Below, in pieces: positions 955 to 61,233 of a DNA stretch of 64,000 nt. Source of the DNA: an uncultured Candidatus Peribacteria bacterium (GTDB lineage Bacteria; Patescibacteriota; Gracilibacteria; CAIRYL01; GCA-016699755); NCBI GenBank assembly GCA_964558715.1, contig CAZLFD010000004.1, forward strand, positions 1,257 to 65,256, read 5' to 3'. Position 1 is the stretch's first letter; each line of letters opens with the position of its first letter. The notes beneath the pieces are model-generated. The model was given only the letters and a program-made list of their open reading frames with translations. It made no database searches and was not told the DNA's origin. Both the position numbers and the translations under genes were made by a program.

Positions 955-3123
955 TTGACCCGAGTGAAGGAGCGTCATAAAATAAGTATGTGCAATAAAC
1001 ATGCAATTAATATGGGTGGCGAGTTCCTTTCCACGGAGTATAAAAATGCTCATGGAAAATTACGGTGGAAATGCCATCTCGGACACGAATGGGAGCAAGA
1101 CTGGCATCATGTGAAAAACAGGGGGCAGTGGTGCCCCCACCCCGATTGTTGCCGATCATCAAAAAAATACGATATCGAATTTTGCCGAGACCTAGCATCA
1201 AAGAGTGACGGAAGATGCCTCTCCAACGAGTACAAGGGGATATTTGAGAATCTGGATTGGGAGTGCTCGCAAGGGCACCTGTTTGAGAGACCTCTAAAAG
1301 TGATAAAAAAAGGAAAATGGTGCCCAGAGTGTGAGAGTGAAGACCGTGGCAAATTAATGCGGGTAACTAAAACCAGAGAGCTTCAAGAGTTAGTAGCACC
1401 GAAAGGTGGTACACTCTTAACACCATTTGAAGACTGGCGGACAAAGTTGTTGTGGCAGTGCTCTGAGGGTCATAGGTGGAAAGCCAGAGCTATCCAGATC
1501 AGAAGCGGCGCATGGTGTAGAACGTGTGCGCGTACAAGAACCTCCAAAAGCATGTTATCGCCGATTGCGGATGTCGAACGGCTTGCTGAACTGAGAGGCG
1601 GTAGTTGTACGGGTTACGATTTCGAAAGGAAAAAATATACTTTCAAATGCGCATTAGGACATCATTGGGCTGCGTCATTAAGCCATATTAAGTATGGAAA
1701 ATGGTGCCCTGATTGTGCTAGATTGGGATTGGGTGAGCGTCTTTGTCGAATATATTTTCAGGAAATTTTTGGTAAAAAATTCCCTAAGATAAGACCAAAA
1801 TGGCTCAGGGGTGCAAAAGGCCTACCTCTAGAGCTTGATGGATATTGCGCGTCACTTAATCTTGCTTTTGAGCATCAGGGAAAACATCACGATAAGCAAG
1901 ACGACTTTTTTCATTCTAAGGAAGCAGATTATCAGCAACGTCTTATTTATGATGAAACCAAGAGGAGAATATGCCGTGAGCGTGGAATCGTCCTGATTGA
2001 GATTCATCAGGTTACGACAAAATTACCGATTGATAAGCTGGCGGAGGAGATTTTCAAGAAATGTACCGAGGCAGGAATCGCCATGCCGCCCATTGACCCC
2101 ATTACTATTAAGCCGGATCTCGGGCCCGCATATTCGCCAGTGAATTTAGAATACTTCAATCAGATTAAAGAAATTGCTAGGCAGAAAGATGGTGTTTGTA
2201 CATCAACGGAATATGGGGGATGTTTATATAAACTCGATTTCCTCTGTGCTAATGGTCATAATTTCCAGGCAACTCCAAGCAGTATTCAGCAGGGCAAGTG
2301 GTGCCCCGTGTGTGCTCGGATCGAACGCAAAACCCAGCATCAACAGCTACAATATGAGTTCTACCAAGCATTGACAGTTGCAAATAGTGGGAGAATACTT
2401 ACTCCAGCAGCTGAATATATCAATGCTCAGAGCAAGGTCGAGTGGGAATGTTCCGAAGGTCATCGATGGGAGGCAACGCCGAATGCCATACAACAGGGGC
2501 AATGGTGTCGAATATGCGGCCATAAGAAGCGTTGGGCTGGTCGCAAGACCACGATCGAGGAAATGCACCAGTTGGCTATTTCAAGGGGTGGCAAGTGCCT
2601 GTCAAGCGAATATACAGATTCTCATACAAGGCTGCGATGGAGTTGCTCCGAGGGGCATGAGTGGGAGGCTATACCTACTAGTGTAAAACGAGGGAGTTGG
2701 TGCAAGCGCTGTGCGTGTCGAAAGATTAATGAGCCGAAAAAACCTCTGATTGATACGATTAGAAAAATTGCTAAAAGCAAGGGTGGTAAACTTTTGTCTC
2801 AGAACTACCTCAACGCCAGTAAAAAGCTGAAATGGCAGTGTAAAGCAGGTCACCAATGGGAAGCTTCGTGGAATCAGATCCAACAGGGACGATGGTGCCC
2901 AAAGTGTGCTGCCATGCGTAGAAACGACTGGAAACGGCTAACAATAGAACAAATGCGCGAATTGGCAGAAGAAAGGGGTGGCAAATGTCTATCGAATAAG
3001 TATGTCGATGCCAGAACTAAACTCAGCTGGCGATGTTCAAAAGCGCATAAATGGTTGGCTACCCCCGATCATATTAAAAGGGGGCAGTGGTGTAAATTGT
3101 GCAAGAAGCGCAAAAGGGGATAG
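955..3123 (+). CDS. Multi-zinc-ribbon repeat protein (9 treble-clef-like repeats) with central PD-(D/E)XK-like nuclease core
   Basis: Nine copies of the pattern W-x-C-x2-GH-x-W/F-x(9-10)-G-x-WC-x2-C (e.g. 'RWKCHLGHEWEQDWHHVKNRGQWCPHPDC', 'KWQCKAGHQWEASWNQIQQGRWCPKCA'). Four lie before and five after a non-repeat segment 'LELDGYCASLNLAFEHQGKHH...GIVLIEI' that resembles a D...E-x-Q/K restriction-endonuclease-fold motif. An in-frame ATG at 988 is an alternative start. Confidence 0.7.
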   Translation: MTRVKERHKISMCNKHAINMGGEFLSTEYKNAHGKLRWKCHLGHEWEQDWHHVKNRGQWCPHPDCCRSSKKYDIEFCRDLASKSDGRCLSNEYKGIFENLDWECSQGHLFERPLKVIKKGKWCPECESEDRGKLMRVTKTRELQELVAPKGGTLLTPFEDWRTKLLWQCSEGHRWKARAIQIRSGAWCRTCARTRTSKSMLSPIADVERLAELRGGSCTGYDFERKKYTFKCALGHHWAASLSHIKYGKWCPDCARLGLGERLCRIYFQEIFGKKFPKIRPKWLRGAKGLPLELDGYCASLNLAFEHQGKHHDKQDDFFHSKEADYQQRLIYDETKRRICRERGIVLIEIHQVTTKLPIDKLAEEIFKKCTEAGIAMPPIDPITIKPDLGPAYSPVNLEYFNQIKEIARQKDGVCTSTEYGGCLYKLDFLCANGHNFQATPSSIQQGKWCPVCARIERKTQHQQLQYEFYQALTVANSGRILTPAAEYINAQSKVEWECSEGHRWEATPNAIQQGQWCRICGHKKRWAGRKTTIEEMHQLAISRGGKCLSSEYTDSHTRLRWSCSEGHEWEAIPTSVKRGSWCKRCACRKINEPKKPLIDTIRKIAKSKGGKLLSQNYLNASKKLKWQCKAGHQWEASWNQIQQGRWCPKCAAMRRNDWKRLTIEQMRELAEERGGKCLSNKYVDARTKLSWRCSKAHKWLATPDHIKRGQWCKLCKKRKRG

Positions 3124-14319: not shown

Positions 14320-15516
14320 TTAGATGGCAGGCACAATCCCCTGGAAGATGACGGAGTAATTGCCGACACGGCCGACAGCATCAACGACACAGACGGGTGC
14401 GAGTACTGCTTGAACACTGCTACCGGTTTCGAGGTAGTATCCGCACTCTACTCCATTGACTTCAGCGCCAGTGATGGAGATATTTTGCGCTTCGAGGCTC
14501 TCGAAGAATGCTCGACGGTCTTCGATCGGAATAGCGCCTGGGTACTGCAGCTCGACTTTTCCAAGTTCAAATACACCAGCTGCAATCGTTGCCGAAAGAT
14601 TTTCGGTCGAAGCAGTGTCGAGAACATCTTTTTCAACAATATTTGGGAAGTAGTGGTAGATATTCTCGATATCACCACTGTCATTCATCTGCACATTGAC
14701 AGAACCGGCCTCTTTCGGTTCGTATGAACCAGTTTTGGCTGGGGTGTTCAGTGTAATAACGGGTAGGGGAAGATCTGGTGTAAAGCGAATCCAGTTTTCA
14801 CCAAATCTGTCGGTTTCTTCACTCGTGCTATACGGGAACCGGAGTAAGCCAGCCGTATTTAGCGCATCAGCTACAGCTTGTGCTCCTGAGCCAGAGATCG
14901 ATGCTGCAATGCCCTCGGCATCAAAGGTAAGATGAAAGACATCATAGTAGAGGAAGTAATCAGCTGAAAGGAGGTCTGTAATCGTGTAGGTCTGCTCATT
15001 CAGGCGTACGACTACACCCTTAATGCCAAGCGTTTCGCCCATTTCCTGAACGACTTCAAGCAGGCTTTTATCGGTCGGGCGCTCAAGCAAATAGACAGGA
15101 AGAGACTCAGGAATCTGGATGTCAATCTCTGTATCGCTATTCGTCCACTCAACACTGTAAGTAGGAGACTCGGCAATCTGTGGCTCATAGTCGGTGATTG
15201 CTGAAGCTGTAAGTTCTTCCTTTTGACGAGTCGTCAGAAATTTCAGCTCTGCTTCACCGCTTTCATCGTAAATCGCCGCTGCAACATCATCCGCTGTTGG
15301 TGTAGGGATATCAGCCTGACTTAGTGCCGCAGAAGTAGGCGTCGGTCGATCATCTTCCTCACCTTTCTCTATGGTTTCTTCAGTCGAGACCAGAGTACTA
15401 GTTGCCGCAGGAGGAGTGGCTTCTTCCGTGTCTGGCGCTGGCGCACCGTTAAAGAGAAGGAGGGCGATAAGCGCCAGAATGCCGATGACGGCAATGATGG
15501 GGATGAGTTTTTTCAT
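14320..15516 (-). CDS. Membrane-anchored extracytoplasmic protein, unknown family (paralog of 52282-53532)
   Basis: N-terminal TM 'LIPIIAVIGILALIALLLF', then a Pro/Thr/Glu-rich linker and a conserved domain. Blocks shared with the paralog include 'VRxNEQxY', 'WIRFxPDLxLPV', 'YPGAI...RR', 'VECGY', 'VIFQG'. Confidence 0.7.
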   Translation of the reverse strand: MKKLIPIIAVIGILALIALLLFNGAPAPDTEEATPPAATSTLVSTEETIEKGEEDDRPTPTSAALSQADIPTPTADDVAAAIYDESGEAELKFLTTRQKEELTASAITDYEPQIAESPTYSVEWTNSDTEIDIQIPESLPVYLLERPTDKSLLEVVQEMGETLGIKGVVVRLNEQTYTITDLLSADYFLYYDVFHLTFDAEGIAASISGSGAQAVADALNTAGLLRFPYSTSEETDRFGENWIRFTPDLPLPVITLNTPAKTGSYEPKEAGSVNVQMNDSGDIENIYHYFPNIVEKDVLDTASTENLSATIAAGVFELGKVELQYPGAIPIEDRRAFFESLEAQNISITGAEVNGVECGYYLETGSSVQAVLAPVCVVDAVGRVGNYSVIFQGIVPAI

Positions 15517-15551
15517 GAGTTGAAAAGATAGAGGGAAGGAAGAAGGAAGGA

Positions 15552-17366
15552 TTAGGATTCGATCAGAATACCTGCTTCAAAGCCATCTGCGGCAGTATTG
15601 GTGGCATCAATGTCACCAAAATAGGTACCGGCACAAGCATTTTGCTCTACGGCGAAGAAAAGTTGGAAGATGTCGAGTGCGGCATCTCCATCCTTCCATG
15701 CAAAGCGAGTGGCAATGTCATCAGGATCGGCGACTTGCACTGCATAGTAACCATCTTCAGAAGTGATACCACTGTGCAATTCAGCAACCAAAGCCTGCTT
15801 TTCTTGGGCGTTCAATCTAAGGCTGTCAGCAATAGTGCTCGCGTACCTTTCTACATCAGACTTTGCAACACAAGCCTCACCGACATATCCGCCGCCGTAA
15901 TCTTTGAGGAACGCATAGCGATAGTAGAAGGTATCCTTGTTGCCAGAAGCTAATGTCCACTGCTGCTCACCCGTATCAAACATCTTACTGGCATAGGTAA
16001 CCAGTACGTCGTCAAAGCTGGGCTTCAGTTTCACTTCTTCTGATGAAGAAAGCACAAGGCGAGGGGAGACACCTTGAACATATTCAAAGGTAACAACTGG
16101 TCCACCATTTGCCCCATCACACTTAATTCTATCCCTAATCTTACCACTTATGTTTTTCCTCTGCGAACCGTCACAGAGTACCAAACAGGTATTTGGTTCG
16201 AGGCTTCCAGTCCAGAAAGCCATCGAATCGACAAAGTATTGCGCCCAGTTAGCCTCTGTTCCGTTATCTGGTAGGGCATCGAGAACACCTTTGGCAACAC
16301 GTTCAGATCGGTAAGTGATATCAAGGACAAAATCAGCGATTTCTTTTGCTGCTCCAGCACGGTTGTTATTGGTGATAACATCTTTTACAAGATTCGTTAG
16401 TTTGCTCGCATTGGCATTGCCACTACCACTACCGGTCGAGGCATTGATCAACTCAGTGGCACTAATTGAGTTGATGCCGGTTACTTCTCCTCCCTTGTTA
16501 TCCAGGATAATTCCCAATAAAGCCTGTTTGAGCATCTCCATACCTACAGCGCTGTCTGTAAAACGCTGCAATGTTATTTGGTCGATGCCCGCGGCGTTTG
16601 CATAGTGCGTATGCCCGCCTTCATTACGAGCAAGTTGTAGCGCTTGCGAACCAACAGCATCAAAAGCATTCACGATAGCAGGAAAAGGCGCGTTGGCCGG
16701 ATCGAGGAAGACACTCTCGATTATATTTCGTCCGCTATCGCAGAGAGTAGTACAGGTACCCGATGTACCAGCTGCTTGACGAGAGGCTCTTTCAATCTCA
16801 GCCACATCAGATACATCTGCCACGATATCTACAATAGTCGGTAAGCTGTGGGTTCCGATAAAATAGTTTTGGTTTGTCTTTGCTCCTTGTAGCTGATCCC
16901 AACTGTCTTCTAGGCGAGAGAAGGCATCGAGCACGATTTTCTTTCCGATCATCGGCCAGATGATACTCGCATGGACATCAAGCGAAAAGTAGCCACTGCT
17001 CGGGTCGGTTTCATTAATCTGAAAACAGACGCCGTTACTTGGCCTATCTGTGGCTGCTGGGTTGGAACTTCGAGTGTAGATGAACACTTGTACTGGTGCA
17101 CCAGGCTGAGCGTTTCCTTCGATTTTAAAAGTTTCACCTTCGCGTACGGTAATGATCTCGGTACGTTGGTTGAAAATCGAGCGCTGCCATGCTGTGTCGT
17201 TATCGCCACGGATAATATAGGCATCATCCCAGTCGATGTTGGCTGGCACTTGTGCGACCAGATCTGGGTCGCAGTTCTGCACACTCTGTTGTTGTGCCAT
17301 GGCAGGTGAAGTCCACAGGCTTGCGACAAGTAAAATGCTCGAGAGGAGGTAATTTTGTGTTTTCAT
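15552..17366 (-). CDS. Secreted Cys-rich protein, unknown family (paralog of 53558-55435)
   Basis: Signal peptide 'MKTQNYLLSSILLVASLWTSPAMA'. Long blocks shared with the paralog include 'AYIIRGDxDTAWQRxIFNQRT', 'QPGAPVQVFIYTRS', 'NGVCFQ', 'DPANAPFP', 'GSQALQLAR', 'FWTGxLEPNxCLxLCDG', 'YVGEACxAKSDVE', 'LDIFQLFFA', 'ADGFEAGILI'. Confidence 0.75.
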   Translation of the reverse strand: MKTQNYLLSSILLVASLWTSPAMAQQQSVQNCDPDLVAQVPANIDWDDAYIIRGDNDTAWQRSIFNQRTEIITVREGETFKIEGNAQPGAPVQVFIYTRSSNPAATDRPSNGVCFQINETDPSSGYFSLDVHASIIWPMIGKKIVLDAFSRLEDSWDQLQGAKTNQNYFIGTHSLPTIVDIVADVSDVAEIERASRQAAGTSGTCTTLCDSGRNIIESVFLDPANAPFPAIVNAFDAVGSQALQLARNEGGHTHYANAAGIDQITLQRFTDSAVGMEMLKQALLGIILDNKGGEVTGINSISATELINASTGSGSGNANASKLTNLVKDVITNNNRAGAAKEIADFVLDITYRSERVAKGVLDALPDNGTEANWAQYFVDSMAFWTGSLEPNTCLVLCDGSQRKNISGKIRDRIKCDGANGGPVVTFEYVQGVSPRLVLSSSEEVKLKPSFDDVLVTYASKMFDTGEQQWTLASGNKDTFYYRYAFLKDYGGGYVGEACVAKSDVERYASTIADSLRLNAQEKQALVAELHSGITSEDGYYAVQVADPDDIATRFAWKDGDAALDIFQLFFAVEQNACAGTYFGDIDATNTAADGFEAGILIES

Positions 17367-17593: not shown

Positions 17594-17962
17594 ATGACAA
17601 AGTATTCCTTCCTGATGATCTGCACTCTTGTTGTTCTGACTGGGTGTGCGCCAAGTAGTGGCTCAGCTGATCGTGAGCCTGTTTCCGAGCTTGAAAAATT
17701 TGCCGCTTGCATTACCGAGAAAGATGCGGTGTTTTACGGAACCGAGTGGTGCCCGCACTGTAAAACGCAGAAAGCAATGTTTAAAAGCGGTGCGATGGAT
17801 TTTATAAATTATGTCGATTGTGATGAAAAGCCCGGTACATGCCAGGTAGCCAAGATCACCGGATACCCGACTTGGATCATCGGCGGTGAGCAGCGCTTGT
17901 CTGGCACCCAGCCACTCGAAAAATTGGCTGAGGCAACGGCTTGCCCTGCACCTGCGGCATAA
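17594..17962 (+). CDS. Thioredoxin-fold lipoprotein resembling the VKOR-associated Trx-like domain
   Basis: Lipobox 'VLTGC'. 'FYGTEWCPHCKTQKAMF...YVDCD...ITGYPTWIIGG' carries a CxxC active site and the cis-Pro 'YPTW' pattern of VKOR-fused Trx-like domains. Confidence 0.65.
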   Translation: MTKYSFLMICTLVVLTGCAPSSGSADREPVSELEKFAACITEKDAVFYGTEWCPHCKTQKAMFKSGAMDFINYVDCDEKPGTCQVAKITGYPTWIIGGEQRLSGTQPLEKLAEATACPAPAA

Positions 17963-21155: not shown

Positions 21156-23012
21156 CTACTTTTTCGGGTACAAGAGGTTAAAGCCTTTCGCAAAAGCATG
21201 CAGCGAAGCCACAATAATGTCGGGGCTACTGGCTTTGGCGCTCACCTTATTGCCGTCTGCATCACTCATTTCCATCTTTACTTTTACCAAAGCGTTTTCG
21301 CGACTGCTGGAAACATCTACGCTAAAGTCTTCTAGCATGGGCCAGAAGGCCGTCTGTTGGCTTACGGCAATCTGTAGTGCTTTAATAAGGGCATCTACTG
21401 GCCCCACACCATCGGCTTCAGCGGTCAATGGTGTACCGGCGAACTCGATGCTGATGCTGCCGTGTGGAGTACGACTGATGCCCCCGACGGACTCAAAATC
21501 CACAATCTGCATCGGATCATGAGGGATGGTGGTGTCTTCGATTGCTTCTTGCAAAATACTGAAGAGATCTCCGGTGCGAATCTCTTTGCCGCGCTTGATA
21601 AAGTTCTCCACTTCTAACGCGACGCCTTTCACAATCAGTTCTGCAGCATCGTACTTAAACTCATCTTTGAGTACAGTATGTAATTGCTGCTCTGTCGGCA
21701 TCGTTTCAAAAACAACCGTTTCTTTGCTGCTATCACTCGCTTCGATACTGATCGATCCTGATGTGAGTAGTCGTTCGATTTCTTCGATATTCGGGTCAAC
21801 CGAAGGCGGATCAGAGAAGCTGGCAATCGCGGCTTTGGGGTCTTTGAGTCCTGTTCCGGTCGCGACACAGACGATGGTGTCATCTGACGAAATCACCTGG
21901 CGCTCCAATAATCCCTCGAGCACAGCAATAGGAATCGCCCCTGATGGTTCGGTAAAGATCGATTCTTCTTTTGAAAGCAGTTTTTGCGCCGCCAGTATCT
22001 GTGTGTCATTCACTATGGCAGTATCACCTTTCGAATCGCGCAAGGCTCTAAGGGCCTTGATGTCGTCTTGTGGAACACCGATACCCACGGCGCTGGCGAT
22101 GGTCTGCGGCTTTTCTACTTTCGTAAAGCGTTTTGCTCCTGTCTTAAACGCAGTACATACTGTATCAGAACCGGTCGGCTGCACGCCGATCATACTTGGC
22201 AGGCGATCGATGAGTCCTAGTTCGTGAAATTCCACAAAACCTTTCCAGACTCCAGAGATATTGGTGCCGCACCCGATCGGCACAATCACGACATCTGGCA
22301 CCTTCCAGTGCAACTGTTCGATGATCTCATACGCGGTGGATTTAGCTCCTTCCGCTCGGAACGCGTAGTCCCCACCAAGATAATAGTTATTCCGTTTTGC
22401 CATTTCTTCGGCGAGCACAACACAATCGGCATATGTGCCACGCACCTGAATCAGCTGCCCGCCATAGCTGAGCGTCTGCGAGAGTTTTCCAATAGGCGTA
22501 CCCTCGGGCACAAGAATATAGCAGGGGAGACCGGCTTGGCTCGAATAGGCCGCAACCGAGGCGGCCATGTTCCCGGTGCTTGCTACACAAACCCCGTTGG
22601 CCCCCATTTCAAGTGCTTTCGTGATTTCGACTAAACTACCGCGGTCTTTAAACACTCCGGTCGGATTCGCCCCTTCGTTTTTCACATACAAATGCTTGAG
22701 CCCCAGTTTGGCGCCAATCTTTTTCACGGCATATAGTGGTGTATCGCCTTCACGCAGACTGATGACTTTTGAACGGTCGGCGATCGGGTAAAAATCCAAA
22801 TACTTTGCGGTCGAAAGAGGAGCATGCTCTAACAAAAACCGATTTAGGCGTGTGCCGATAAGCTCTAAATCCATTCCTACTTCCAGGGCATTATTACAGT
22901 CCAAGCAGGTGGTGCAGGTTTCTTGCTCATCCCATTCTTTGCCGCAGGCAACACATGTAATCGTGTAATATCGATCGTTCGTGCTCATCTCAAAAAAGAC
23001 AGTACGCCCCAT
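21156..23012 (-). CDS. thrC: Threonine synthase fused to a C-terminal LeuA-type (LeuA_dimer-like) allosteric domain
   Basis: N-terminal Cys4 ribbon ('CVACG...CTTCLDC'). PLP-lysine motif 'NEGANPTGVFKDRG' and 'ASTGNMAAS'. The C-terminal ~115 aa ('GVGPVDALIKALQ...LEDFSVDVSSSRENALVKVKMEM...SSPDIIVASLHAFAKGFN') match the regulatory domain of 2-isopropylmalate/citramalate synthases. Confidence 0.75.
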   Translation of the reverse strand: MGRTVFFEMSTNDRYYTITCVACGKEWDEQETCTTCLDCNNALEVGMDLELIGTRLNRFLLEHAPLSTAKYLDFYPIADRSKVISLREGDTPLYAVKKIGAKLGLKHLYVKNEGANPTGVFKDRGSLVEITKALEMGANGVCVASTGNMAASVAAYSSQAGLPCYILVPEGTPIGKLSQTLSYGGQLIQVRGTYADCVVLAEEMAKRNNYYLGGDYAFRAEGAKSTAYEIIEQLHWKVPDVVIVPIGCGTNISGVWKGFVEFHELGLIDRLPSMIGVQPTGSDTVCTAFKTGAKRFTKVEKPQTIASAVGIGVPQDDIKALRALRDSKGDTAIVNDTQILAAQKLLSKEESIFTEPSGAIPIAVLEGLLERQVISSDDTIVCVATGTGLKDPKAAIASFSDPPSVDPNIEEIERLLTSGSISIEASDSSKETVVFETMPTEQQLHTVLKDEFKYDAAELIVKGVALEVENFIKRGKEIRTGDLFSILQEAIEDTTIPHDPMQIVDFESVGGISRTPHGSISIEFAGTPLTAEADGVGPVDALIKALQIAVSQQTAFWPMLEDFSVDVSSSRENALVKVKMEMSDADGNKVSAKASSPDIIVASLHAFAKGFNLLYPKK

Positions 23013-27413: not shown

Positions 27414-29852
27414 ATGAAGCATGTTCTCGTTCTCGACATCGAAGCCACCGGGTTAGACGCGGAATCATCCGGACTGCTAGAGCTTTCTGCCGTACGCCTT
27501 TCGGCCGACTTTAAAAAAGAAACGGCAGTCTTCGACGAACTTGTGAATCCCAAGCAAGAGATTCCTCCGTTTATCGAGCGGTTGACAGGAATCAGCAACG
27601 AGATGGTCGAAGACGCAGCTTCTCTGGAAGAAATCCGTGATAAATTCCATAAATTTCTAAAACCCGGCGATATTATTTGCGGGCACAATATTATGTTCGA
27701 CGTAAACTTTCTATTGAGTAAAGATTTTAAGGTTCCCAACAACACGCTCGATACTTTTTCGCTCGCGCAGATCATCTTGCCAGATGAAGCGAGCTACTCG
27801 CTTGAGGTGCTTACAGAGAAGTATGAGATCGAACACAAAAACGCACACCGCGCGCTGGCTGATGTCGAGGCAAATGCTGAATTATTGCGGATCCTTGTTG
27901 ATGAAGTCCAAAAGTTCGATGCAGAATTGCTAGAAAAATTCTCAGAAATCCTCCAGAAGTCTGATTGGATCGGTAGCCAACTTATCCGCCAGGCGATTGA
28001 AGAACAGAAAAAACCAAAGAAGAAAGCGGCAAGCAATGCACAGCTGACAATCTTCGATTTCGAAGATACTACTGGGCCGGTACCGGTAATTCCTATAGCC
28101 GAAATTGAAAATATTTCTCGCGAATTAACAGCCGTGGAGAACTCCGCTGCTCAGCAGATTGAAAACGAGATGCGGCAAGGCGGAGAAATACTTTTCTCTT
28201 TGCCGATGGACACCTCGCAGATTCTCGTTGCAAACGCGGCTGCGAAACAATTCCATACGCGTCGCAATGAGTCGGTGGCAGTTGCGATGCCAAAGATTTA
28301 CGGGCACACAACTCCACCAGGGCTCTTTCGCTATACTTCACCCGGTGGAATTATTTGTGAGACCGAATTCCGCAATTGGCTCGAGAAAAAATCCACACTC
28401 GATGAATCAGATACTATTGTCGCCCTCAAATTCGAGCGCGAGAAATTTTATGGAAATTCGCTTGCTGTGCAAGATTTCCCCGCAGTCTATGCCGAACGTC
28501 AGATTGTAAAAACCTGGCTCAGCGAAGATCACACCCGCTGTAAAAGTGATTGCCCGGCAAAGAAAGTATATCTCGAAGCACCTAGTAAAAAACTCTTTTT
28601 CTGTGATTATTCCGATATCGCCAATTGTCCCGCGCAACATGTGATTTTGCTCAAGAGCGACTCTCTCATCAAACACGTCGATTCGTTTTCACGCGAGCGT
28701 TTTTTTGTAAATCAACTAGAAAAATTTCTCGAAAAAAATGCAGATACCCATGCCAATTTTGTCGATGGTGCACTCTTCGGCATTGGCCTGCTTAAGCGCT
28801 TTGTACGAGAACAAGTCGGTGAAAGCCCCTATCGTAAGAATCTGGTTTTCGACGAATCTATCATTGCCACGCCAGATATCACCAATCTGGCAGAAGGTTT
28901 TCGTGTTGCCAGCGCAGAAGTGCAAAAACTCTTTCCTGACCAGCGTGAAGCAGCAGAGAATTTTGCAGCTCTCGCCGAGCTTGTCTCGGCACCTGTCACC
29001 GAAAACGAATGCCGCTTTGCTACCATTGCCGAAGATGATGAACTGACCTTCACCAAAGCGCCACAGTCGTTGCAAGACAAGCTTGAAGTGATGCTGGCAA
29101 ATAAGGAAGCCCGAGCCTTTGTTGGAAATGTATTTTTGAAAAAAGGTGGTCGCTGTGTTTTTGGTTCCGATTTAGCAGCGCCAGAGCGCCAGTTCATCAT
29201 AAATTCTGACTTTGATTTCGCCAAAAACTCACTCGTGCTGGTGCCAGAATCAGGGGGAAACACCAAATCTGCCGATCACCAGACTACAGTCGATTTTATG
29301 CGACAGTTACTGCCAAAGTGCCCGGGCAATCTATTGGCTCTATTCCCTAATTCGGCTTTTGGCGAAAAATTCATCACCGATATCAGTGCAACAGCAGAGG
29401 AAAATGGCTTTTCCTTGCTCTCTGCTTCTGGTGGTTCTACCGGAAAACTGCGTGCCCAATTGGCGCGCTCTGAAAAGACGATTCTCGTAGCTAGTGCCAG
29501 TAACATCAAACGCATCGATTTTCGCACAGTCAGTTTTGCAGGCTGTGTGCAACATCGTCTCTTTTTCGACCCACCGCCAGACCCAGCAACAGCAGCACAA
29601 AATGCAGGTGTCTCTGACGAATTTTTAGAATACGCCCTGCCACGCGCTGTGCAGCGTTTTTCACGGATTTTTGGTAACTTGTTAGCAGGTAAAAAACCGT
29701 TTTTTTGGACGAACCTTGATGCCCATTTTCAGCGCAAAGGCGGCTTTGCCGATGAGTTTTTGCGTGCTTTACCGAGTTCGGTCCCGATTGTGCAAAAATC
29801 GGTAAATGAGATGAATGATGACATTCTGCTATTTTTGCGAGAGCATGAGTAA
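27414..29852 (+). CDS. DnaQ-type 3'-5' exonuclease fused to a DinG-like helicase module with degenerate ATPase motifs
   Basis: Exo motifs 'VLDIEATGLD', 'GHNIMFDVNFL', 'HRALADVEA'. The C-terminal ~600 aa follow the DinG layout ('LVASASNIKRIDF...LFFDPPPDP'). No GxGK[ST] Walker A and no DEAH box are visible ('SLPMDTSQILV', 'LLKSDSLIKH' at the expected places). Confidence 0.65.
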   Translation: MKHVLVLDIEATGLDAESSGLLELSAVRLSADFKKETAVFDELVNPKQEIPPFIERLTGISNEMVEDAASLEEIRDKFHKFLKPGDIICGHNIMFDVNFLLSKDFKVPNNTLDTFSLAQIILPDEASYSLEVLTEKYEIEHKNAHRALADVEANAELLRILVDEVQKFDAELLEKFSEILQKSDWIGSQLIRQAIEEQKKPKKKAASNAQLTIFDFEDTTGPVPVIPIAEIENISRELTAVENSAAQQIENEMRQGGEILFSLPMDTSQILVANAAAKQFHTRRNESVAVAMPKIYGHTTPPGLFRYTSPGGIICETEFRNWLEKKSTLDESDTIVALKFEREKFYGNSLAVQDFPAVYAERQIVKTWLSEDHTRCKSDCPAKKVYLEAPSKKLFFCDYSDIANCPAQHVILLKSDSLIKHVDSFSRERFFVNQLEKFLEKNADTHANFVDGALFGIGLLKRFVREQVGESPYRKNLVFDESIIATPDITNLAEGFRVASAEVQKLFPDQREAAENFAALAELVSAPVTENECRFATIAEDDELTFTKAPQSLQDKLEVMLANKEARAFVGNVFLKKGGRCVFGSDLAAPERQFIINSDFDFAKNSLVLVPESGGNTKSADHQTTVDFMRQLLPKCPGNLLALFPNSAFGEKFITDISATAEENGFSLLSASGGSTGKLRAQLARSEKTILVASASNIKRIDFRTVSFAGCVQHRLFFDPPPDPATAAQNAGVSDEFLEYALPRAVQRFSRIFGNLLAGKKPFFWTNLDAHFQRKGGFADEFLRALPSSVPIVQKSVNEMNDDILLFLREHE

Positions 29853-35303: not shown

Positions 35304-36326
35304 CTATTGCAAAAGTAAGGGCAGTATATTGCTTGCCGATTTGCGTTCAACAGTGCGGATCTGCTGAAAATCTCTGGTAGATTTTTTTTGAATCACAATA
35401 CATGAGGAGGCTATTTTTTTTGTGGATGCGGTTTCTGCAATGATATGATCCGATAAACCTCGGTCCTCGAAAAATGAACGAATCTTCGGAGCAGCTGAGA
35501 GTGCCAAAAAAGGCGTATTTTCAAGTAGCGCGAGCAAATTGCCGTGCAGACGTGAAGATATGACCAGGCGGCTATTTGAAATCTCTTTTCGCAGCGTGCC
35601 AATATCACCTAACATAACGATTGGAACACCGCTTTTATGAGCAAAATTTGTATCCAATGAATCCATTACAGCACACCTGATTGGTTTTGGCAGAGCTTTT
35701 TCTTTGCATAATTTTTTTATTCTTTTGCTACTCATCTTTCCATCACCACGAATCATCAAAAGAGTACCTTTTTTACTTTTTGGTGCCGATAACTTGCGCA
35801 ATAGAAATACCGCATCGGTGGCAATTATAATGCGCTCGTTTGGAATACCTAGTTTTACCAACATTTTTTGTGATGCCTGGTCGCGCACCGAAATAAATCG
35901 TGCACCAAGAAAGGCCTTTCGCGCATGTTTTCGTGCCGATTCTGTAACGAGTGGGCCGACTGAATTGGCAATGATGATATATTTTTTTTGAAACCTTCGT
36001 GCCCACCAAACGTAATATGACCACAAGAGTGGTGCTTTTGCTTCTCGGTCTTGAAATAAGCCTCCTCCACCGTAAATGACGAGATCGGTAGCTCGCAACG
36101 CAAGAAGAAAGCGGAAAAAACTCGTCAATTTTAAAAATGAACGGAGGCCGAACGGAGGCCGAGGAACCGACGCTACACTGTGTTCTTGCATAGTGAACCG
36201 GGGATTTGCAGAAACGACGGTGGTTTCAAAATCCGTCTTTTTAAGAGCGCTGATCAGACCTGCACAGATAGCTTCATCACCCCAGTTAATGCCTCCGTAG
36301 TTGCCGAATAGTAGGAGCTTCTTCAT
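35304..36326 (-). CDS. csaB: Polysaccharide pyruvyl transferase (CsaB-like)
   Basis: 'LLLFGNYGGINWGDEAI' N-terminal motif and 'SSRLHGNLLALLENTPFLALSAAPKIRSFF' C-terminal motif, typical of CsaB-family enzymes. Confidence 0.65.
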   Translation of the reverse strand: MKKLLLFGNYGGINWGDEAICAGLISALKKTDFETTVVSANPRFTMQEHSVASVPRPPFGLRSFLKLTSFFRFLLALRATDLVIYGGGGLFQDREAKAPLLWSYYVWWARRFQKKYIIIANSVGPLVTESARKHARKAFLGARFISVRDQASQKMLVKLGIPNERIIIATDAVFLLRKLSAPKSKKGTLLMIRGDGKMSSKRIKKLCKEKALPKPIRCAVMDSLDTNFAHKSGVPIVMLGDIGTLRKEISNSRLVISSRLHGNLLALLENTPFLALSAAPKIRSFFEDRGLSDHIIAETASTKKIASSCIVIQKKSTRDFQQIRTVERKSASNILPLLLQ

Positions 36327-47454: not shown

Positions 47455-48369
47455 TTACTGTCTTGGCGGAACTTCATCCAGACGAAAGCGCTCGAGAAAA
47501 GGTTTGTCACGAATAATGAAAAACAAGAAGAGTAGCGCAAAAAGCGATATTCCCAAACTCATGATCACCGGTAAGCGGATGCCATATGCTATTGCCACCA
47601 CATCACCACGGAAAAAATCGAGAAAAGCGTTTGTAAGCCCAAGTACAAAGAGCATCACCATAAAAAATTTTCCTTCGCTCCAACGCCGCCAGATCTTACG
47701 CTCCCAAAAAACCCACCCGATCCAAAACACAACGGCAAGCAAAAGGGCAGAATACAGTTGCACCGAATAGATGGGAACCGAATAGCGGACTTCTTGCAGT
47801 TCATACTTCACTGAAAGCGGAAACGGTAACCATTCAGGGGCTGGCGAACCATAATTCCATCCGGCAAAAAACCCGCCCAATGCTGCAAAAAATGCCAGCA
47901 CGATTCCCGGGAGAATAAAGGCATCGAGCCACGAAAAAAACCTTTCTTTTCGCCAATACGCCAAAAGAAAAAAAGCGATAAAAAACCCGCCGACCGCCCA
48001 ATCAGCCTTGAGCGAACCATCACCAAATAGAAAAAATGAGCGAAAAATTTCGATGAGCGAACCAAAGATGTCAGAACTCGGCAAGCGTTGCTTAACTGTT
48101 GGCCACAACGAAAGAAAAGCGCCCAAGCGGCCAAACAGAAATGGAATCACAACAAAAAAGAAGAGGTGATCACTTAAAAATTTAAGCGAGATGTCTTCAT
48201 CACGAATAGTATGAATGAGGATTGCAGCGGCGGCGAGTACTCCGATACAGACAATGATTCCCCCCGTAGGAACAAGAAACGGGCCAAGGGGGATGATGGA
48301 AATATTCATAACTGCGATCGAATGAGATTTGCGAGAAATACTGTGCCAGAAATCGATAGCCTGTCGCAA
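47455..48369 (-). CDS. Lgt-like polytopic membrane protein (divergent; catalytic residues apparently not conserved)
   Basis: By-eye colinearity with E. coli Lgt ('FGRLGAFL' vs 'GGRIGYVL', 'VQLYSALL' vs 'SQLYELLL', 'FLDFFRGD' vs 'IVEFFRQPD'). However, the 'GRLGNFINGE' block reads 'AALGGFFAGW'. Confidence 0.4.
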   Translation of the reverse strand: MRQAIDFWHSISRKSHSIAVMNISIIPLGPFLVPTGGIIVCIGVLAAAAILIHTIRDEDISLKFLSDHLFFFVVIPFLFGRLGAFLSLWPTVKQRLPSSDIFGSLIEIFRSFFLFGDGSLKADWAVGGFFIAFFLLAYWRKERFFSWLDAFILPGIVLAFFAALGGFFAGWNYGSPAPEWLPFPLSVKYELQEVRYSVPIYSVQLYSALLLAVVFWIGWVFWERKIWRRWSEGKFFMVMLFVLGLTNAFLDFFRGDVVAIAYGIRLPVIMSLGISLFALLFLFFIIRDKPFLERFRLDEVPPRQ

Positions 48370-52217: not shown

Positions 52218-52281
52218 GCAGCAGAAAAATTCCGCCACATTCTGCATTGATTTTTCCGATAATTCAAGTCGTATACGGTAT

Positions 52282-53532
52282 TTACTCCTGATCGGGGTTC
52301 ACAGCGCTTATGACTCCTTGAAAAATAACATCGTAATCACCCGCTCTACCGATGCCGACCACCTTACACGATGGTACAATCAATGCTTGTGGCACAGGAG
52401 ATGTTTCAAAGAGGTAGCCGCATTCAACGCTGCTTAATTCTGCCTGTTCGATAGAAATGATGTCTTGCTCATTTTGCTGGGCATAGAAGGAGCGTCGTTC
52501 AGAAACAGCGATGGCACCTGGGTGTAGTAACTCTATCTTGCCTTTCTGAAAATCACCGGCCTCTGTGAGTGCAATAATAGAGTCGCTGTCCTGCAGACGG
52601 ACGGTTTGTGCCTCACTGACATTCGGGAAGCGTGAATGGATCTCGACAATCGATGATTCATCATTAATGAGGATATCTACGACACCATCGGCTGCCGGTT
52701 CAAAGGTGTTGACTAAGAGTGGCGTTTCTAGTGAATACACCGGCAATGAAAGGTCGGGTTGAAAGCGAATCCATTGATTTCCGAAATCATCCATAATCTC
52801 TTCAGCGTTATATGCGAAGCCAAGTACACCTGCCTCTCTTAGCGTCTTTGCAACGGTCTCTACAGTTGAATCGGCTAAGCCGATATCGACGGCATGCGTC
52901 TCAAAAATCATATGAAATAAATTATAAGCGAGGGAGTAGTCGCCACCGACAATATCCATCAACACATACTCTTGTTCATTGACACGCACGAGATGACCAT
53001 TGATACCCAGGTTGGCAGCAAGATTGGTGATTAATGACTTAAGATCGCCTCCTGCGGGCCTTAAGATTTCATAGACTGGTGCCTCACCGGGCAGATCAAG
53101 TGGTGCTGTAACCTCATCATCGGTCCATTGTACTTCAAGGCGCATAATCGGCTCGGCGGGTGGTTGGTAGGAAGAAATTGCTGACTCGTTCAGCTCTTCT
53201 ACAATCTCGGGCGCCAGCAGCTCAGTCATCGAATCGCTTTTATCCGCAAAAAGTATGGCGTCAAGGCCGGCTTTCGTAGTTGTTCGAGCAATTGGACTTG
53301 GTTGCGTTGAAGTCTCTGGTTGATCTGGAGTATCATCTGTCATTTCGTCTTCGCCGGAATCTGCAGGTGAAGAAGGTGCTATTTTTGCGTCAGGCGATGT
53401 GTCACCGTCAGAAATGGCTGCCTCGGGCGGAGTATCCGATGTAGTGCCTTGCTGTTGGGTGTTGGCGACGATCACCAGAATGATCACAATACCAGCTACA
53501 AGCGCGAAGAGAAGCAGTGTTTTTTTGGTCAT
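52282..53532 (-). CDS. Membrane-anchored extracytoplasmic protein, unknown family (paralog of 14320-15516)
   Basis: N-terminal TM 'LLLFALVAGIVIILVIV', a Pro/Asp/Thr-rich linker, and the same conserved C-terminal blocks as the 398-aa paralog. Confidence 0.7.
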   Translation of the reverse strand: MTKKTLLLFALVAGIVIILVIVANTQQQGTTSDTPPEAAISDGDTSPDAKIAPSSPADSGEDEMTDDTPDQPETSTQPSPIARTTTKAGLDAILFADKSDSMTELLAPEIVEELNESAISSYQPPAEPIMRLEVQWTDDEVTAPLDLPGEAPVYEILRPAGGDLKSLITNLAANLGINGHLVRVNEQEYVLMDIVGGDYSLAYNLFHMIFETHAVDIGLADSTVETVAKTLREAGVLGFAYNAEEIMDDFGNQWIRFQPDLSLPVYSLETPLLVNTFEPAADGVVDILINDESSIVEIHSRFPNVSEAQTVRLQDSDSIIALTEAGDFQKGKIELLHPGAIAVSERRSFYAQQNEQDIISIEQAELSSVECGYLFETSPVPQALIVPSCKVVGIGRAGDYDVIFQGVISAVNPDQE

Positions 53533-53557
53533 GATTGAAATGAGAAGACTACTGTGG

Positions 53558-55435
53558 TCAGTCGATCAAGATGCCGGCTTCAAAGCCATCGGCACCACTT
53601 TTTGTCGCTTCTATCGATCCAAAATCAGTCGCGTCGCAGTCATTTTTATCAATCGCGAAGAAGAGCTGGAAGATATCCAATGGTATACCACCGTTTTTCC
53701 AGCGAAAGCGCTCAGCAATACTGGCAGGATCGGCGACTGAAAGTTTGTAGTAGCCCTCATCGTCGGTGATACTGCTAAACAGCTCAGCTACCAGTGCTCG
53801 TTCTTCCGTCGTATTGAGGCCGAACTTGGTGCTCACATCTCGTGCGTAGCCTTCAACATCAGACTTCGCAATGCAGGCTTCGCCCACATAAGCACCCGCG
53901 TAAGGTTTTAGGAATGCATATTGATAGTAAAAACTGCCATTAAAATGAGCTGGGATCGTCCACCCTTGTTGTCCCGAGTCGAACAGCTTACTGGCATAGG
54001 TGATCATGATATCTTTAAAGTCTGGTTCTAGGTTGACCTCCTCTTCCGAGTTCAACACCAAGCGCGGGTCATCGCCAATCACGAACTCGAAGTTCAATAC
54101 TCGTATGCGCCGGTTGCCAGGCGCAGTATCGGTGTCAGTCTGTGCTACACCGTTGCAAGTATAGTTGCCTCCACGATTTCCGCTTACGAGTTGGTCGCTA
54201 AATGAAGTGCCGTCGCAGAGAGACAGGCAGACATTGGGCTCTAAGTCGCCGGTCCAGAATGTGACCGTGTCGGCGAAATTCTGTGCCCAGTTTTCTTCAG
54301 TGCCCGCCGTTGGCAAAGCTGATAAGAGGGCCTGCGCCGCATTTCGGAAGAGATTATCGTTATTCATCAATACCCGTGCGATATCTTCTGCAGCTTCATT
54401 ACGATCAGGAGCATTGGTTAACATCTTTTTCAGGTTGAGTGCCATTTGCGATGCGCCCAGATTAGCGGCTCCAGAACCACTAGCAGCCGCTTGCAGTTCT
54501 GCAGCGCTGATGGTTGAAATTCCATCGATCGGCATGCTGACAGTATCATTGCGGAGACCTAAAAGCGTTTGCTTTAACACTTCAATGGTTACCGCATTCA
54601 TCGTGATGTCAGCCACCGATTGGCGATCGTTGATGAGTTCACTATTGAGATACACTGTATTTGTCCCTTCGATTCGAGCTAACTGTAAAGCTTGTGAACC
54701 AATAGCGTTGAAGGATTGTTCAATGATCGGAAAAGGGGCATTGGCCGGATCGATCAACACGGCCTCCAACAAGTTTGGCTCGCCATTAGTATTGTTACAG
54801 ATGGTATTGCACGATCCCGAAACACCCGCCCGTTGGCGTGACAGTTCTTCGATATCTTCAAAGGAGGATTGCTCGAGTTCAACCGAGACGGTCGTTGGTA
54901 GGATGTGCGTGCCGATATGATAGTTCTGATTTGTTCTTGCGTTTTCTAACTGGTCCCAACTGTTTTCAAGGCGAGAGAAGGCATCGAGCACAATATTTCT
55001 GCCGATATTCGGCCAAAGGAGGCGCGCGTGTAGCTCCATCGAAAAATAGCCGCTGCTGGGATCGGTTTCATCAAGTTGGAAGCAAACTCCATTATTCGGA
55101 CGATTACTTGCTCCGGGTTCTTGGCTGCGAGTATAAATGAAGACCTGCACTGGGGCACCCGGCTGTGCAGTACCTTCTATGGTAAATGTTTCTCCTTCGC
55201 GGATGGTGACGACATCGGTTCGCTGATTAAAAATAGCTCGTTGCCAAGCGGTATCATCATCACCGCGGATGATATAGGCATTGTCCCATAAGATATCATC
55301 CGGTACATTCGATACGAGATCAGGGGAACAGGATTTGATTTCAGGTGTACCCTGCGCCAAACCTGTGCTCATGCTGAATGCTCCACCTAGAACAAGGATG
55401 CCTGCACCAAAAAGGAGGTGAGTAAAAGATTTCAT
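53558..55435 (-). CDS. Secreted Cys-rich protein, unknown family (paralog of 15552-17366)
   Basis: Signal peptide 'MKSFTHLLFGAGILVLGGAFSMSTGLA'. Colinear with the 604-aa paralog, and the Cys positions are conserved. Confidence 0.75.
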   Translation of the reverse strand: MKSFTHLLFGAGILVLGGAFSMSTGLAQGTPEIKSCSPDLVSNVPDDILWDNAYIIRGDDDTAWQRAIFNQRTDVVTIREGETFTIEGTAQPGAPVQVFIYTRSQEPGASNRPNNGVCFQLDETDPSSGYFSMELHARLLWPNIGRNIVLDAFSRLENSWDQLENARTNQNYHIGTHILPTTVSVELEQSSFEDIEELSRQRAGVSGSCNTICNNTNGEPNLLEAVLIDPANAPFPIIEQSFNAIGSQALQLARIEGTNTVYLNSELINDRQSVADITMNAVTIEVLKQTLLGLRNDTVSMPIDGISTISAAELQAAASGSGAANLGASQMALNLKKMLTNAPDRNEAAEDIARVLMNNDNLFRNAAQALLSALPTAGTEENWAQNFADTVTFWTGDLEPNVCLSLCDGTSFSDQLVSGNRGGNYTCNGVAQTDTDTAPGNRRIRVLNFEFVIGDDPRLVLNSEEEVNLEPDFKDIMITYASKLFDSGQQGWTIPAHFNGSFYYQYAFLKPYAGAYVGEACIAKSDVEGYARDVSTKFGLNTTEERALVAELFSSITDDEGYYKLSVADPASIAERFRWKNGGIPLDIFQLFFAIDKNDCDATDFGSIEATKSGADGFEAGILID

Positions 55436-55494
55436 GTTTGTTTTTAAAAATGCACTAAATATTATACCTGAAAAATCCTGTCAAAAGCAAGTGG

Positions 55495-56925
55495 TTAGTT
55501 TCGGGCATCGCGAGTGCGCAGATCTGAAAGCAGATTCTCAAAATATACCTGAAAATCATCGTCGATCACATAAATGTCAGCGCGTACTCTCAGTCGCGTA
55601 TCATCTCCGCTATCGATGACAATGCCACCATTCAGAAAAACAAAAGTCGCCTTACGGTCAACGGTTGTATCGACCACATTTGAAACCAATTCATCGTTTA
55701 TCTCAACAAAAAGATTTTTCAGACCGCCATCATCGATGCCGTCAAACGACAGAACCATCGATTCTATAATCGCGCTTTCCTCGCCAGAGATCTCGGAGAT
55801 CTTGATCCGCGCCACATCGGCACGTTTGCGGACGTAGTATAACGGTGCGCGTGTCGGTTCGAATTCCACATTTAGTTCGGCAGTTATCGAATTAACGGCA
55901 CCGATCATGTTGCTCGAAATGGGAAACTGGCCCTGAATGGCGATAGGTTCACCAGATTCTTTGCCAATGAGCAGAATGGAATCCGTATTTTCTATCACTA
56001 ACTGATGATTTCCATCACCACTTTCGGCATCCATGTCGGCAGCAATTACGATGTTTCTTGTCTCCCCTGCCGCGATTTCGACCGGTTCATAGCTGATATT
56101 CAGTTCGGCGATATGGTCATCGGCAAAACTACGTCGCGAACCGTAGCGCGCGCCATCCACCAATACTTTTACGCCGATAAAATCCTTTTCGCTGCCCAGA
56201 CCTTTGCGCCGAATGGTAATACCTTCCAAACCCACTGCCTCGGTCGTGGGCGCGGAGATGGCAATCTCTAAAAAGCGTACATTCGATGCATTGCGTGGAA
56301 TCGCACCAGGCGGGAAGAACCCGGGAGCCAAACTGACGTTTGCATAGTCTCGCTCAGGAACAGGTGTGATTTCTGCTTGCGTTTGCTCCTCTACCTCCAC
56401 GATGTCTTGTTCGCAGACCGTGCCATATTGTTGGATAGAATTTGCAGCTAGTAACCAATCTTCCATTTTTAATTCAGTCAGCGGCTGATGCGGCAAAAAT
56501 ACTATCCGCTCAGATCGATGTAGACAGAGCGTGGTTGCTGTTTGAATATACGGTGCAAACCACATTTCCTCTTTTATATCCAGAAACGGAATTGCAGTGT
56601 TCTCTGCCTCCGTCTCAATCTCTAAAAGTGTGAGGATGACTTTCAGCGCTTCCGCACGCGTAACTGCTCGATCAGGCACAAAGAGGCGATGATCAGGAAG
56701 GCTGATTGCACCTTGCTCGAGTGCGAATTCGATAAACGGAGCATTTTTATCTGTAGCCGAAATATCAAGAAAGCGAGTGTTTTGATTCGTTAATTGTTCA
56801 CCTGGGAAGAGGGTGCTCACCACCTCACGCACAAGATCTCCGCGAGTAATGATATTCGATTCAGCTAATGAATGCGGTAAAAAAGTAGTGTAAATAAGCG
56901 CAATGCAAAGAAAGATTTTTTTCAT
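55495..56925 (-). CDS. SLH-domain-like cell-surface protein
   Basis: Signal peptide 'MKKIFLCIALIYTTFLPHSLA'. Two SLH-like units ('FLDISATDKNAPFIEFALEQGAIS...FVPDRAVTRAEALKVILTL', 'FLDIKEEMWFAPYIQTA'), then a ~300-aa probable beta-rich domain. The ORF opens at 56949. Confidence 0.55.
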   Translation of the reverse strand: MKKIFLCIALIYTTFLPHSLAESNIITRGDLVREVVSTLFPGEQLTNQNTRFLDISATDKNAPFIEFALEQGAISLPDHRLFVPDRAVTRAEALKVILTLLEIETEAENTAIPFLDIKEEMWFAPYIQTATTLCLHRSERIVFLPHQPLTELKMEDWLLAANSIQQYGTVCEQDIVEVEEQTQAEITPVPERDYANVSLAPGFFPPGAIPRNASNVRFLEIAISAPTTEAVGLEGITIRRKGLGSEKDFIGVKVLVDGARYGSRRSFADDHIAELNISYEPVEIAAGETRNIVIAADMDAESGDGNHQLVIENTDSILLIGKESGEPIAIQGQFPISSNMIGAVNSITAELNVEFEPTRAPLYYVRKRADVARIKISEISGEESAIIESMVLSFDGIDDGGLKNLFVEINDELVSNVVDTTVDRKATFVFLNGGIVIDSGDDTRLRVRADIYVIDDDFQVYFENLLSDLRTRDARN

Positions 56926-57036
56926 GATCAGCAGATAAAACCACGCCAAAGAGTATGCTTTGCAGCAAAAGTTGCAAGCCCTGTTTTTTCAAAATACAAC
57001 GTGTCAGAATACCCCGTGCATCATTCCGTTTATAAA

Positions 57037-61087: not shown

Positions 61088-61135
61088 CGGAAACTAAGAA
61101 AGAAAATTTTTGCGCTCACATTAGCAAAACGCAAA

Positions 61136-61155
61136 GAAAAGAAAAGAAAAGAAAA
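61136..61155. repeat. (GAAAA)4 pentanucleotide repeat, i.e. (TTTTC)4 on the gdhA-sense strand
   Basis: Four perfect tandem units 49-68 nt upstream of the gdhA start codon. Confidence 0.9.
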
Positions 61156-61233
61156 GGGATTATTGCGTAACATAGGTGACGAACAGCTTTCGTCAAGCAA
61201 GCATAGGGGTACGATGCTCGCGCCTTTTATCCA

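Follow-up and report, generated by a model that had tools for sequence, protein, structure and literature searches.

Two copies of a gene pair for a predicted secreted protein and a putative membrane-anchored partner in a Peribacteria genome

A stretch of 64,000 nucleotides (nt) from the genome of an uncultured Peribacteria bacterium, referred to here in its entirety as the window, carries two copies of a gene pair in which a large gene for a predicted secreted protein (A) is followed on the same strand by a smaller gene for its putative membrane-anchored partner (B). The first copy consists of A1 (15552..17366, minus strand, 604 amino acids (aa)) and B1 (14320..15516, minus strand, 398 aa), separated by 35 nt; the second consists of their paralogs A2 (53558..55435, minus strand, 625 aa) and B2 (52282..53532, minus strand, 416 aa), separated by 25 nt. 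An earlier note on this DNA had described two such pairs in the same order and orientation, and the four open reading frames (ORFs) are recovered as it gave them. The linkage of A to B is old and has been kept where it is present, but it is not general to the A family. The reading we favor, although we stop short of calling it probable, is that A and B form a surface module in which B acts as a membrane-tethered stalk that holds the secreted A at the cell surface.

By alignment, the similarity between the two copies lies far above chance for both proteins. A1 and A2 are colinear over their full length (53% identity, E = 0), with 71% identity across residues 27-176, where the earlier note had estimated about two thirds by eye, 44% in the helical middle and 59% over the C-terminal 160 residues. 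All nine cysteines of A are kept between the two copies, in agreement with the conserved Cys blocks already described. B1 and B2 align over 378 aa with 35% identity (E = 2e-81); identity falls to 21% in the linker and reaches 43% in the C-terminal 170 aa, the domain that had been seen as shared, and both of its Cys are kept. Synonymous sites are saturated, the proportion of synonymous differences (pS) being 0.84 for A and 0.81 for B, so that the duplication of the pair must be old. Nonsynonymous divergence (dN) amounts to 0.37 for A and 0.70 for B, whereas a dN/dS ratio between the copies, which the earlier note had proposed as a check, is not computable at pS values above the saturation limit.

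The A1 sequence opens with a predicted signal peptide (residues 1-24, 17295..17366, minus strand; cleavage between AMA and QQ), and for A2 inspection by eye together with hydropathy places cleavage between GLA and QG, after residue 27 (55355-55435). The NCBI-derived model of A2 (P0002, 604 aa) begins at an internal Met and lacks this signal peptide; the better match to the family is the 625-aa ORF (Logan P0005). Downstream, the A1 model divides into an N-terminal block (residues 27-404, 16155..17288, minus strand), predicted to hold a beta-sandwich, an alpha/beta region and a helical bundle, and a C-terminal block (residues 413-604, 15555..16130, minus strand), delimited by the model and by invariant residues, which ends in the family motif DGFEAGIL.

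Searched exhaustively by profile, 1.84 billion cluster representatives yield 75 clusters for the A family (62 at E < 1e-30), with most members 580-720 aa long. These clusters are tiny, comprising 1-4 member sequences each, and their members are named, if at all, ‘hypothetical protein’. The family tree is star-like. A word-index search with A returned only A1, A2 and a 682-aa relative (P0003), which is the closest relative of the two window proteins at 44% identity. The family appears to be confined to Peribacteria-like bacteria, judging from ten loci, because the loci that carry its members encode either housekeeping proteins 44-67% identical to those of the window or pilins of the CPR-typical family PF18895 (CPR, candidate phyla radiation). 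Small genes of this PF18895 (T4SS_pilin) type lie near A-family genes at L089 (1728-2132) and L091 (8355-9627).

Nearly all full-length members have a hydrophobic N-terminal segment followed by a GDNC-type motif, and eight Cys, corresponding to A1 positions 32, 114, 205, 209, 394, 416, 499 and 578, are kept in 88-100% of the 43 members aligned. The C-terminal block adds the invariant residues Y482, Y484, C499, E529, W557, C578 and G599 (A1 numbering), and most members carry an RDGFE[AV]GIL motif no more than 5 residues from the C-terminus. An insertion hot spot lies at A1 residues ~335-365 (window ~16272-16364); a short helical segment in A1, it gives way in roughly half of the members to low-complexity, Pro-rich spacers as long as ~235 aa. 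In P0003, an 88-aa Pro-rich insert stands at ~419 instead.

Pfam has no family that matches any of the 43 aligned full-length members at E <= 0.01. A1 and A2 likewise have no match in NCBIfam, PADLOC or, by tblastn, phage records, and A1 has a single noise-level match in PHROGs (E = 0.01, function unassigned). A phage or defense origin of the pair was dropped on these grounds, as PHROGs, PADLOC and the phage records yielded nothing usable. Searches of A and B against PDB sequences with phmmer and hmmsearch returned no match at E <= 10, and pattern scans based on the two alignments recovered neither relatives of A and B nor the window's own genes from collections of genome and metagenome contigs, the source genome itself lying outside those collections. 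B1 and B2 give only noise in Pfam and NCBIfam (E >= 0.04), and P0082, a further B sequence, has no match there. The statement that neither protein belongs to a described family therefore stands: by these searches both families are new to curated libraries, and the A family is also new to solved structures.

That last point rests on a confident model. AlphaFold2 (AF2), run on the 43-sequence alignment, predicts A1 with a mean predicted local distance difference test score (pLDDT) of 85.4 and a predicted template modeling score (pTM) of 0.68. The model comprises an eight-strand beta-sandwich (~50-155), an alpha/beta region (177-257), a six-helix bundle (263-386) and a C-terminal alpha/beta region (413-601). 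Foldseek found no match to it at E < 1e-3 among 350,542 PDB chains; the best matches are local and immunoglobulin (Ig)-like, to Ig V-type and adhesin repeat domains (E ~1e-2, query TM-score (TMq) <= 0.14). In BFVD there is one marginal match, to an uncharacterized giant-virus protein (E = 8e-4, TMq 0.22). The likeness to the Ig-like beta-sandwich domains of surface proteins is thus limited to A1 residues ~50-155, whereas the remaining ~450 residues match nothing.

A is very probably exported and very probably carries disulfides, as the earlier note proposed. Three observations point to the disulfides: the eight family-conserved Cys, the joint absence of C205 and C394 from 4 members, which points to a bond between these two, and a gene next door whose product could supply the chemistry. 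This gene (17594..17962, plus strand) diverges from A1 across 227 nt and encodes a thioredoxin-fold lipoprotein of 122 aa with an LTGC lipobox and a DsbA-type WCPHC motif (Pfam Thioredoxin, E = 7.8e-7), a candidate extracytoplasmic disulfide oxidoreductase that could provide disulfide-forming activity. No such gene is seen beside A at the other fetched loci. The label ‘Cys-rich’, on the other hand, has to be given up: Cys makes up 1.49% of A1 and 1.44% of A2 against a mean of 1.14% for the 46 window ORFs, 10 of which are richer, and the mean for the Candidatus Peribacter proteome is 1.67% (PMC4736985). The very Cys-rich extracellular proteins of Candidatus Peribacter riflensis (mean 1,655 aa, 7.2 +/- 2.4% Cys; Anantharaman et al. 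2016, PMC4736985) come from the same bacterial class and are likewise exported and uncharacterized and, in their case, proposed for attachment. In length and Cys content, the two features compared, A differs from them (604-625 aa, 1.5% Cys).

No means of anchoring is evident in A. The first Cys lies several residues past the predicted AXA site (in the family at large, this Cys belongs to the GDNC motif), and no lipobox is found. Neither A1, A2 nor the rest of the family shows a C-terminal LPXTG/hydrophobic segment, the only LPxxG-like match being internal (A2 residue 374) and absent from A1, and Pfam detects no SLH domain in A or B. B likewise carries neither an LPXTG motif nor a lipobox. Readings of A as a lipoprotein, a sortase substrate or an SLH protein were accordingly rejected. 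B, in contrast to A, has a predicted anchor. A basic N-terminus (MKK/MTKK) precedes a hydrophobic segment of 19-20 residues with acidic residues after it, which by eye and by hydropathy fits an uncleaved signal anchor; then come an acidic linker of 70-90 residues, rich in Ala, Thr, Pro, Asp and Glu, and an ectodomain of ~300 residues. In B1 the predicted transmembrane (TM) anchor spans residues 4-22 (15451..15507, minus strand; Kyte-Doolittle windows >1.6 at residues 1-29, model helix 6-22), and in B2 residues 5-23 (53464-53520). The Ala/Thr/Glu/Pro-rich linker of B1 (residues 24-95, 15232..15447, minus strand) has a net charge of -14 and is modeled as disordered (pLDDT <50). Its ectodomain (residues 96-398, 14323..15231, minus strand), delimited by conservation among three B sequences, would end in a beta-hairpin bridged by C358 and C376 according to a low-confidence model. 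An origin of B as a diverged piece of A was also considered and rejected (hhalign of B against the A profile, probability 2%).

From these parts the following mechanism may be proposed. A and B would be co-transcribed. A would be exported by Sec and its signal peptide removed, giving an acidic multi-domain protein of ~65 kDa with about four disulfides, itself unanchored to wall or membrane. B would insert N-in/C-out through its uncleaved signal anchor, and its acidic Pro/Thr-rich stalk of 70-90 residues would hold the 300-residue ectodomain off the membrane, at or beyond the wall, where it would dock the secreted A and retain it on the surface. The working part would be A, most likely as a ligand-binding protein rather than an enzyme. 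Tethering by B is suggested by the complementary outfit of the two proteins, A having a signal peptide without an anchor and B an anchor with a disordered acidic linker; a binding role for A is suggested because neither a catalytic motif among its invariant residues nor an enzyme family is detectable. Two features of the A family argue in the same direction: about half of its members have long Pro-rich spacers, as in wall-spanning surface proteins, and its paralogs are multiple and fast-diverging. A bolder version of the surface-module reading, which we regard as doubtful, makes A and B an unrecognized surface complex of new folds in Peribacteria and related CPR bacteria, with the B stalk presenting a disulfide-locked binding head, A, whose module is also grafted onto secreted subtilases and would let the cell attach to partner cells or feed on them.

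The case that A and B belong together rests on their linkage. In the window the two genes lie on the same strand, 35 and 25 nt apart, both are retained in both copies although synonymous sites are saturated, and the A-then-B order recurs at a distant locus (L089), where the A gene P0014 is followed after 63 nt by a B homolog (hhalign 99.9%, E = 3e-32) and identity to the window proteins is 32-33% for A and 32% for B. The distinct B sequences thus number three: B1, B2 and the 454-aa protein of L089, to which P0082 is 99% identical. Relatives of B were sought by word-index searches and by hidden Markov model (HMM) scans of the fetched loci, the exhaustive search having been made with A only. With B as query, the word-index searches recovered B1 and the L089-type protein and nothing more; even B2 was missed, probably because most of the shared words come from the low-complexity linker.

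Several observations weigh against the surface-module reading. HMM scans of the fetched loci place an adjacent B at only 1 of the 8 informative external A lineages (L094, at which the locus is too short to judge, is left out of these); none adjoins A in the P0003 lineage or at L088, L090, L091, L092, L093 and L095. P0003, the closest relative, is followed by ferritin genes. Most A proteins thus seem to work without a neighboring B, although a B gene could lie at another place in those genomes. Nor is B a simple replacement for a missing stalk, since short, spacerless forms of A also lack it: the idea that B substitutes for the Pro-rich spacer, which is absent from the B-associated A proteins, was rejected because short A forms without B are common. 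A 589-aa gene after P0012 in L088 was likewise rejected as a B, being another A paralog. The N-terminus of B2 contains a possible cleavage site (between VA and N), and a cleaved B would be soluble. Finally, the contact between A and B is hypothesized, and the AF2 model of B, built from 3 sequences, is unusable at pLDDT 47. Of the conserved two-gene module described in the earlier note, the old, retained duplication and the recurrence in L089 stand, while its generality across the family does not. That note had counted homologs not co-localized elsewhere as evidence against the module, and 7 of the 8 lineages, that of P0003 included, are of this kind. The functions that it had offered as examples for such a surface system, namely adhesion, host or partner interaction in an episymbiont or an S-layer-associated complex, are conjectural.

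A rival explanation makes A and B neighbors by descent only, carried along by a segmental duplication of both without functional coupling. We consider this improbable. Most A-family loci do without B, and B evolves much faster than A (35% against 53% identity between copies), as this explanation would have it. However, order, strand and a gap of no more than 63 nt are kept in three pairs at saturating divergence, including a lineage in which A is only ~32% identical, and no B has been seen away from A in a sample of three, the 2567-nt contig with P0082 being left out.

Genomic neighborhood analysis shows that A has further A genes and subtilases, rather than B, as its commonest partners. L088, L089 and L091 carry A paralogs in tandem, with 2-3 paralogs per locus. 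In L088 (1402-11173) the gene order is an S8-A fusion, two A genes and a further S8 gene (S8+DUF11), and in L092 (3915-7767) an S8 gene ends 1 nt ahead of an A gene. Three proteins of 1153-1302 aa (P0053, P0071 and P0074) are S8 subtilases that carry the N-terminal ~380 residues of A (profile range 21-404) as their extreme C-terminus, and four stand-alone proteins (P0052, P0055, P0056 and P0062) consist of the N-terminal A block without the rest. C-terminal appendages for targeting or anchoring are known from secreted subtilases, the wall-binding regions of cell-envelope proteinases being an example. The reuse of the N-terminal A block in this position suggests that it is a targeting or binding module rather than a catalytic one. 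A1 and A2 differ from these fusions in that neither has an S8 catalytic domain or an S8 neighbor in the window. Also in L092 (7852-11468), the A gene P0020 is followed by genes for an aminotransferase and a glutamate dehydrogenase that are 66-67% identical to a window pair (59816-62739) lying 4-6 kb from A2, a rearranged synteny around the A2 locus.

The fusions and flanking S8 genes at L088 and L092 raise the alternative that A is a partner of secreted subtilases, as a substrate recruiter, scaffold, regulatory subunit or protease substrate, and B an anchored extracytoplasmic regulator or chaperone of A; YycI/YycH for WalK and YpeB for SleB would be analogies for such a regulator. This is a possibility we rate as unlikely, though not negligible. 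On the side of B, Foldseek matches its pLDDT-47 model best to PDB entry 5coz (E = 4e-4) and to YycI (2o3o, E = 1e-2 and weaker). YycI/YycH and 5coz are N-terminally membrane-anchored extracytoplasmic alpha/beta proteins, and B shares with them its predicted N-terminal anchor. These matches, however, have TM-scores <= 0.32 and root-mean-square deviations of 14-20 A and depend on that low-confidence model, so that they serve as a lead rather than a classification. No B gives a Pfam signal for YycI, YycH or PepSY, no histidine kinase gene adjoins either pair, no S8 gene adjoins either window pair, and A contains no recognizable enzyme or inhibitor motif.

The host is a CPR bacterium of the Peribacteria, as judged from its CTP synthase. 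The counterpart in an uncultured Candidatus Peribacteria metagenome-assembled genome (MAG) shares 91% identity with it; those from other Peribacteria, Peregrinibacteria and Gracilibacteria MAGs reach 61-63%, and everything else stays at <=56%. The CPR affiliation suggested by the earlier note is borne out. The A2-B2 pair sits in a same-strand run (51312-56949, minus strand) in which an SLH protein gene, A2, B2 and a solitary secF follow one another at distances of 59, 25 and 34 nt, with no secD adjacent. The SLH-domain surface protein (55495..56949, minus strand; Pfam SLH, E = 1.9e-6) is encoded 59 nt upstream of A2. Elsewhere in the window lie genes for a CsaB-like polysaccharide pyruvyl transferase (35304-36326) and for Lgt (47455-48369), both on the minus strand. 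The sequence of these genes suggests that the host anchors SLH proteins to a pyruvylated wall polymer and processes lipoproteins. Together with the WCPHC lipoprotein they point to a Gram-positive-type surface with extracytoplasmic disulfide chemistry, and the SLH proteins, CsaB-like enzyme and Lgt are thereby consistent with the surface-module reading (PMC4736985).

The architecture itself, a secreted protein with a membrane-anchored neighbor, is of a familiar kind, and among known systems A-B, as known here from its genes, most resembles outer-protein/stalk pairs. In the SlaA/SlaB pair of the Sulfolobales, a larger secreted acidic outer protein and a smaller membrane-anchored stalk protein are encoded in one operon, the anchor of SlaB being a TM helix at its C-terminus, with a coiled coil. 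A could by analogy be an S-layer-type lattice protein and B its membrane stalk, an explanation to which we give little credence. In its favor are the gene-pair architecture, with a larger acidic protein (pI, isoelectric point, 4.3-4.5) followed by a smaller anchored stalk protein, and the place of A2-B2 between an SLH protein gene and secF. However, the general Pfam, PDB-sequence and Foldseek searches showed no relation in sequence or fold to SlaA/SlaB. The predicted anchor of B lies at the opposite end of the protein from that of SlaB, being N-terminal and followed by a disordered acidic linker. The present host is a bacterium with peptidoglycan. SLH proteins combined with CsaB are the usual bacterial route for anchoring an S-layer; the host has SLH proteins and a CsaB-like enzyme, yet A and B lack SLH domains. 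A is moreover multi-copy, with diverging copies (2-3 paralogs per locus), and rare in databases (clusters of 1-4), and its genes show no sign of a strong promoter. Scans for promoters and terminators scored at or below shuffled expectation and gave no usable signal, and no terminator-like site was found in the A-B gaps. A perfect TATAAT does occur ~30 nt ahead of the A2 ATG. In the 60 nt upstream of 17366, 15516, 55435 and 53532, none of the four start codons is preceded by a Shine-Dalgarno-like purine-rich motif.

It is harder still to see A as a Sec-secreted polymorphic toxin or bacteriolysin and B as its anchored extracytoplasmic immunity protein, which we hold to be very improbable. The order of the genes, toxin then immunity, would suit this explanation, as would the fast divergence of the paralogs, faster still in the downstream gene. 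An immunity gene is nevertheless expected beside every toxin, yet in 7 of the 8 other lineages no B adjoins A. No domain of a toxin or hydrolase was detected, PADLOC and PHROGs gave no signal, and conservation is spread over the whole of A, with no variable toxic tip.

CPR bacteria are believed to live in dependence on other cells, and their surface machinery beyond pili is annotated almost entirely as ‘hypothetical protein’. Against this background the A family is now a defined target, with ~75 clusters, a confident predicted structure that lacks a solved-fold match, clear hallmarks, a subtilase link and, in some lineages, a B partner. For the specialist the surprise is moderate: CPR genomes contain many exported orphan families restricted to a lineage, and this is one of them. 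If the proposed docking of A by B is true, it would offer a handle on how binding or proteolytic modules are displayed on the Peribacteria cell surface; if it is wrong, a new Pfam entry and a structure determination for the A family would still be reasonable aims.

Among the other products encoded in the window are IF-2, RecG, DnaX, PyrC, PyrG, ThyA, ThrC and GdhA, a content that agrees with the nucleotide-synthesis capacity reported for Peribacteria (PMC4736985). Three side observations concern single genes. A 722-aa protein (955-3123, plus strand) has no NCBIfam match, its only recognizable part being a C-terminal treble-clef zinc finger/CapR-homology domain (DUF4379, ~600-652). An unusual fusion (21156-23012, minus strand) joins threonine synthase (residues 17-394) to a C-terminal region (453-616) matching the C-terminal part of 2-isopropylmalate synthase, and an 812-aa protein (27414-29852, plus strand) combines a DnaQ-type exonuclease with a DinG-family helicase.

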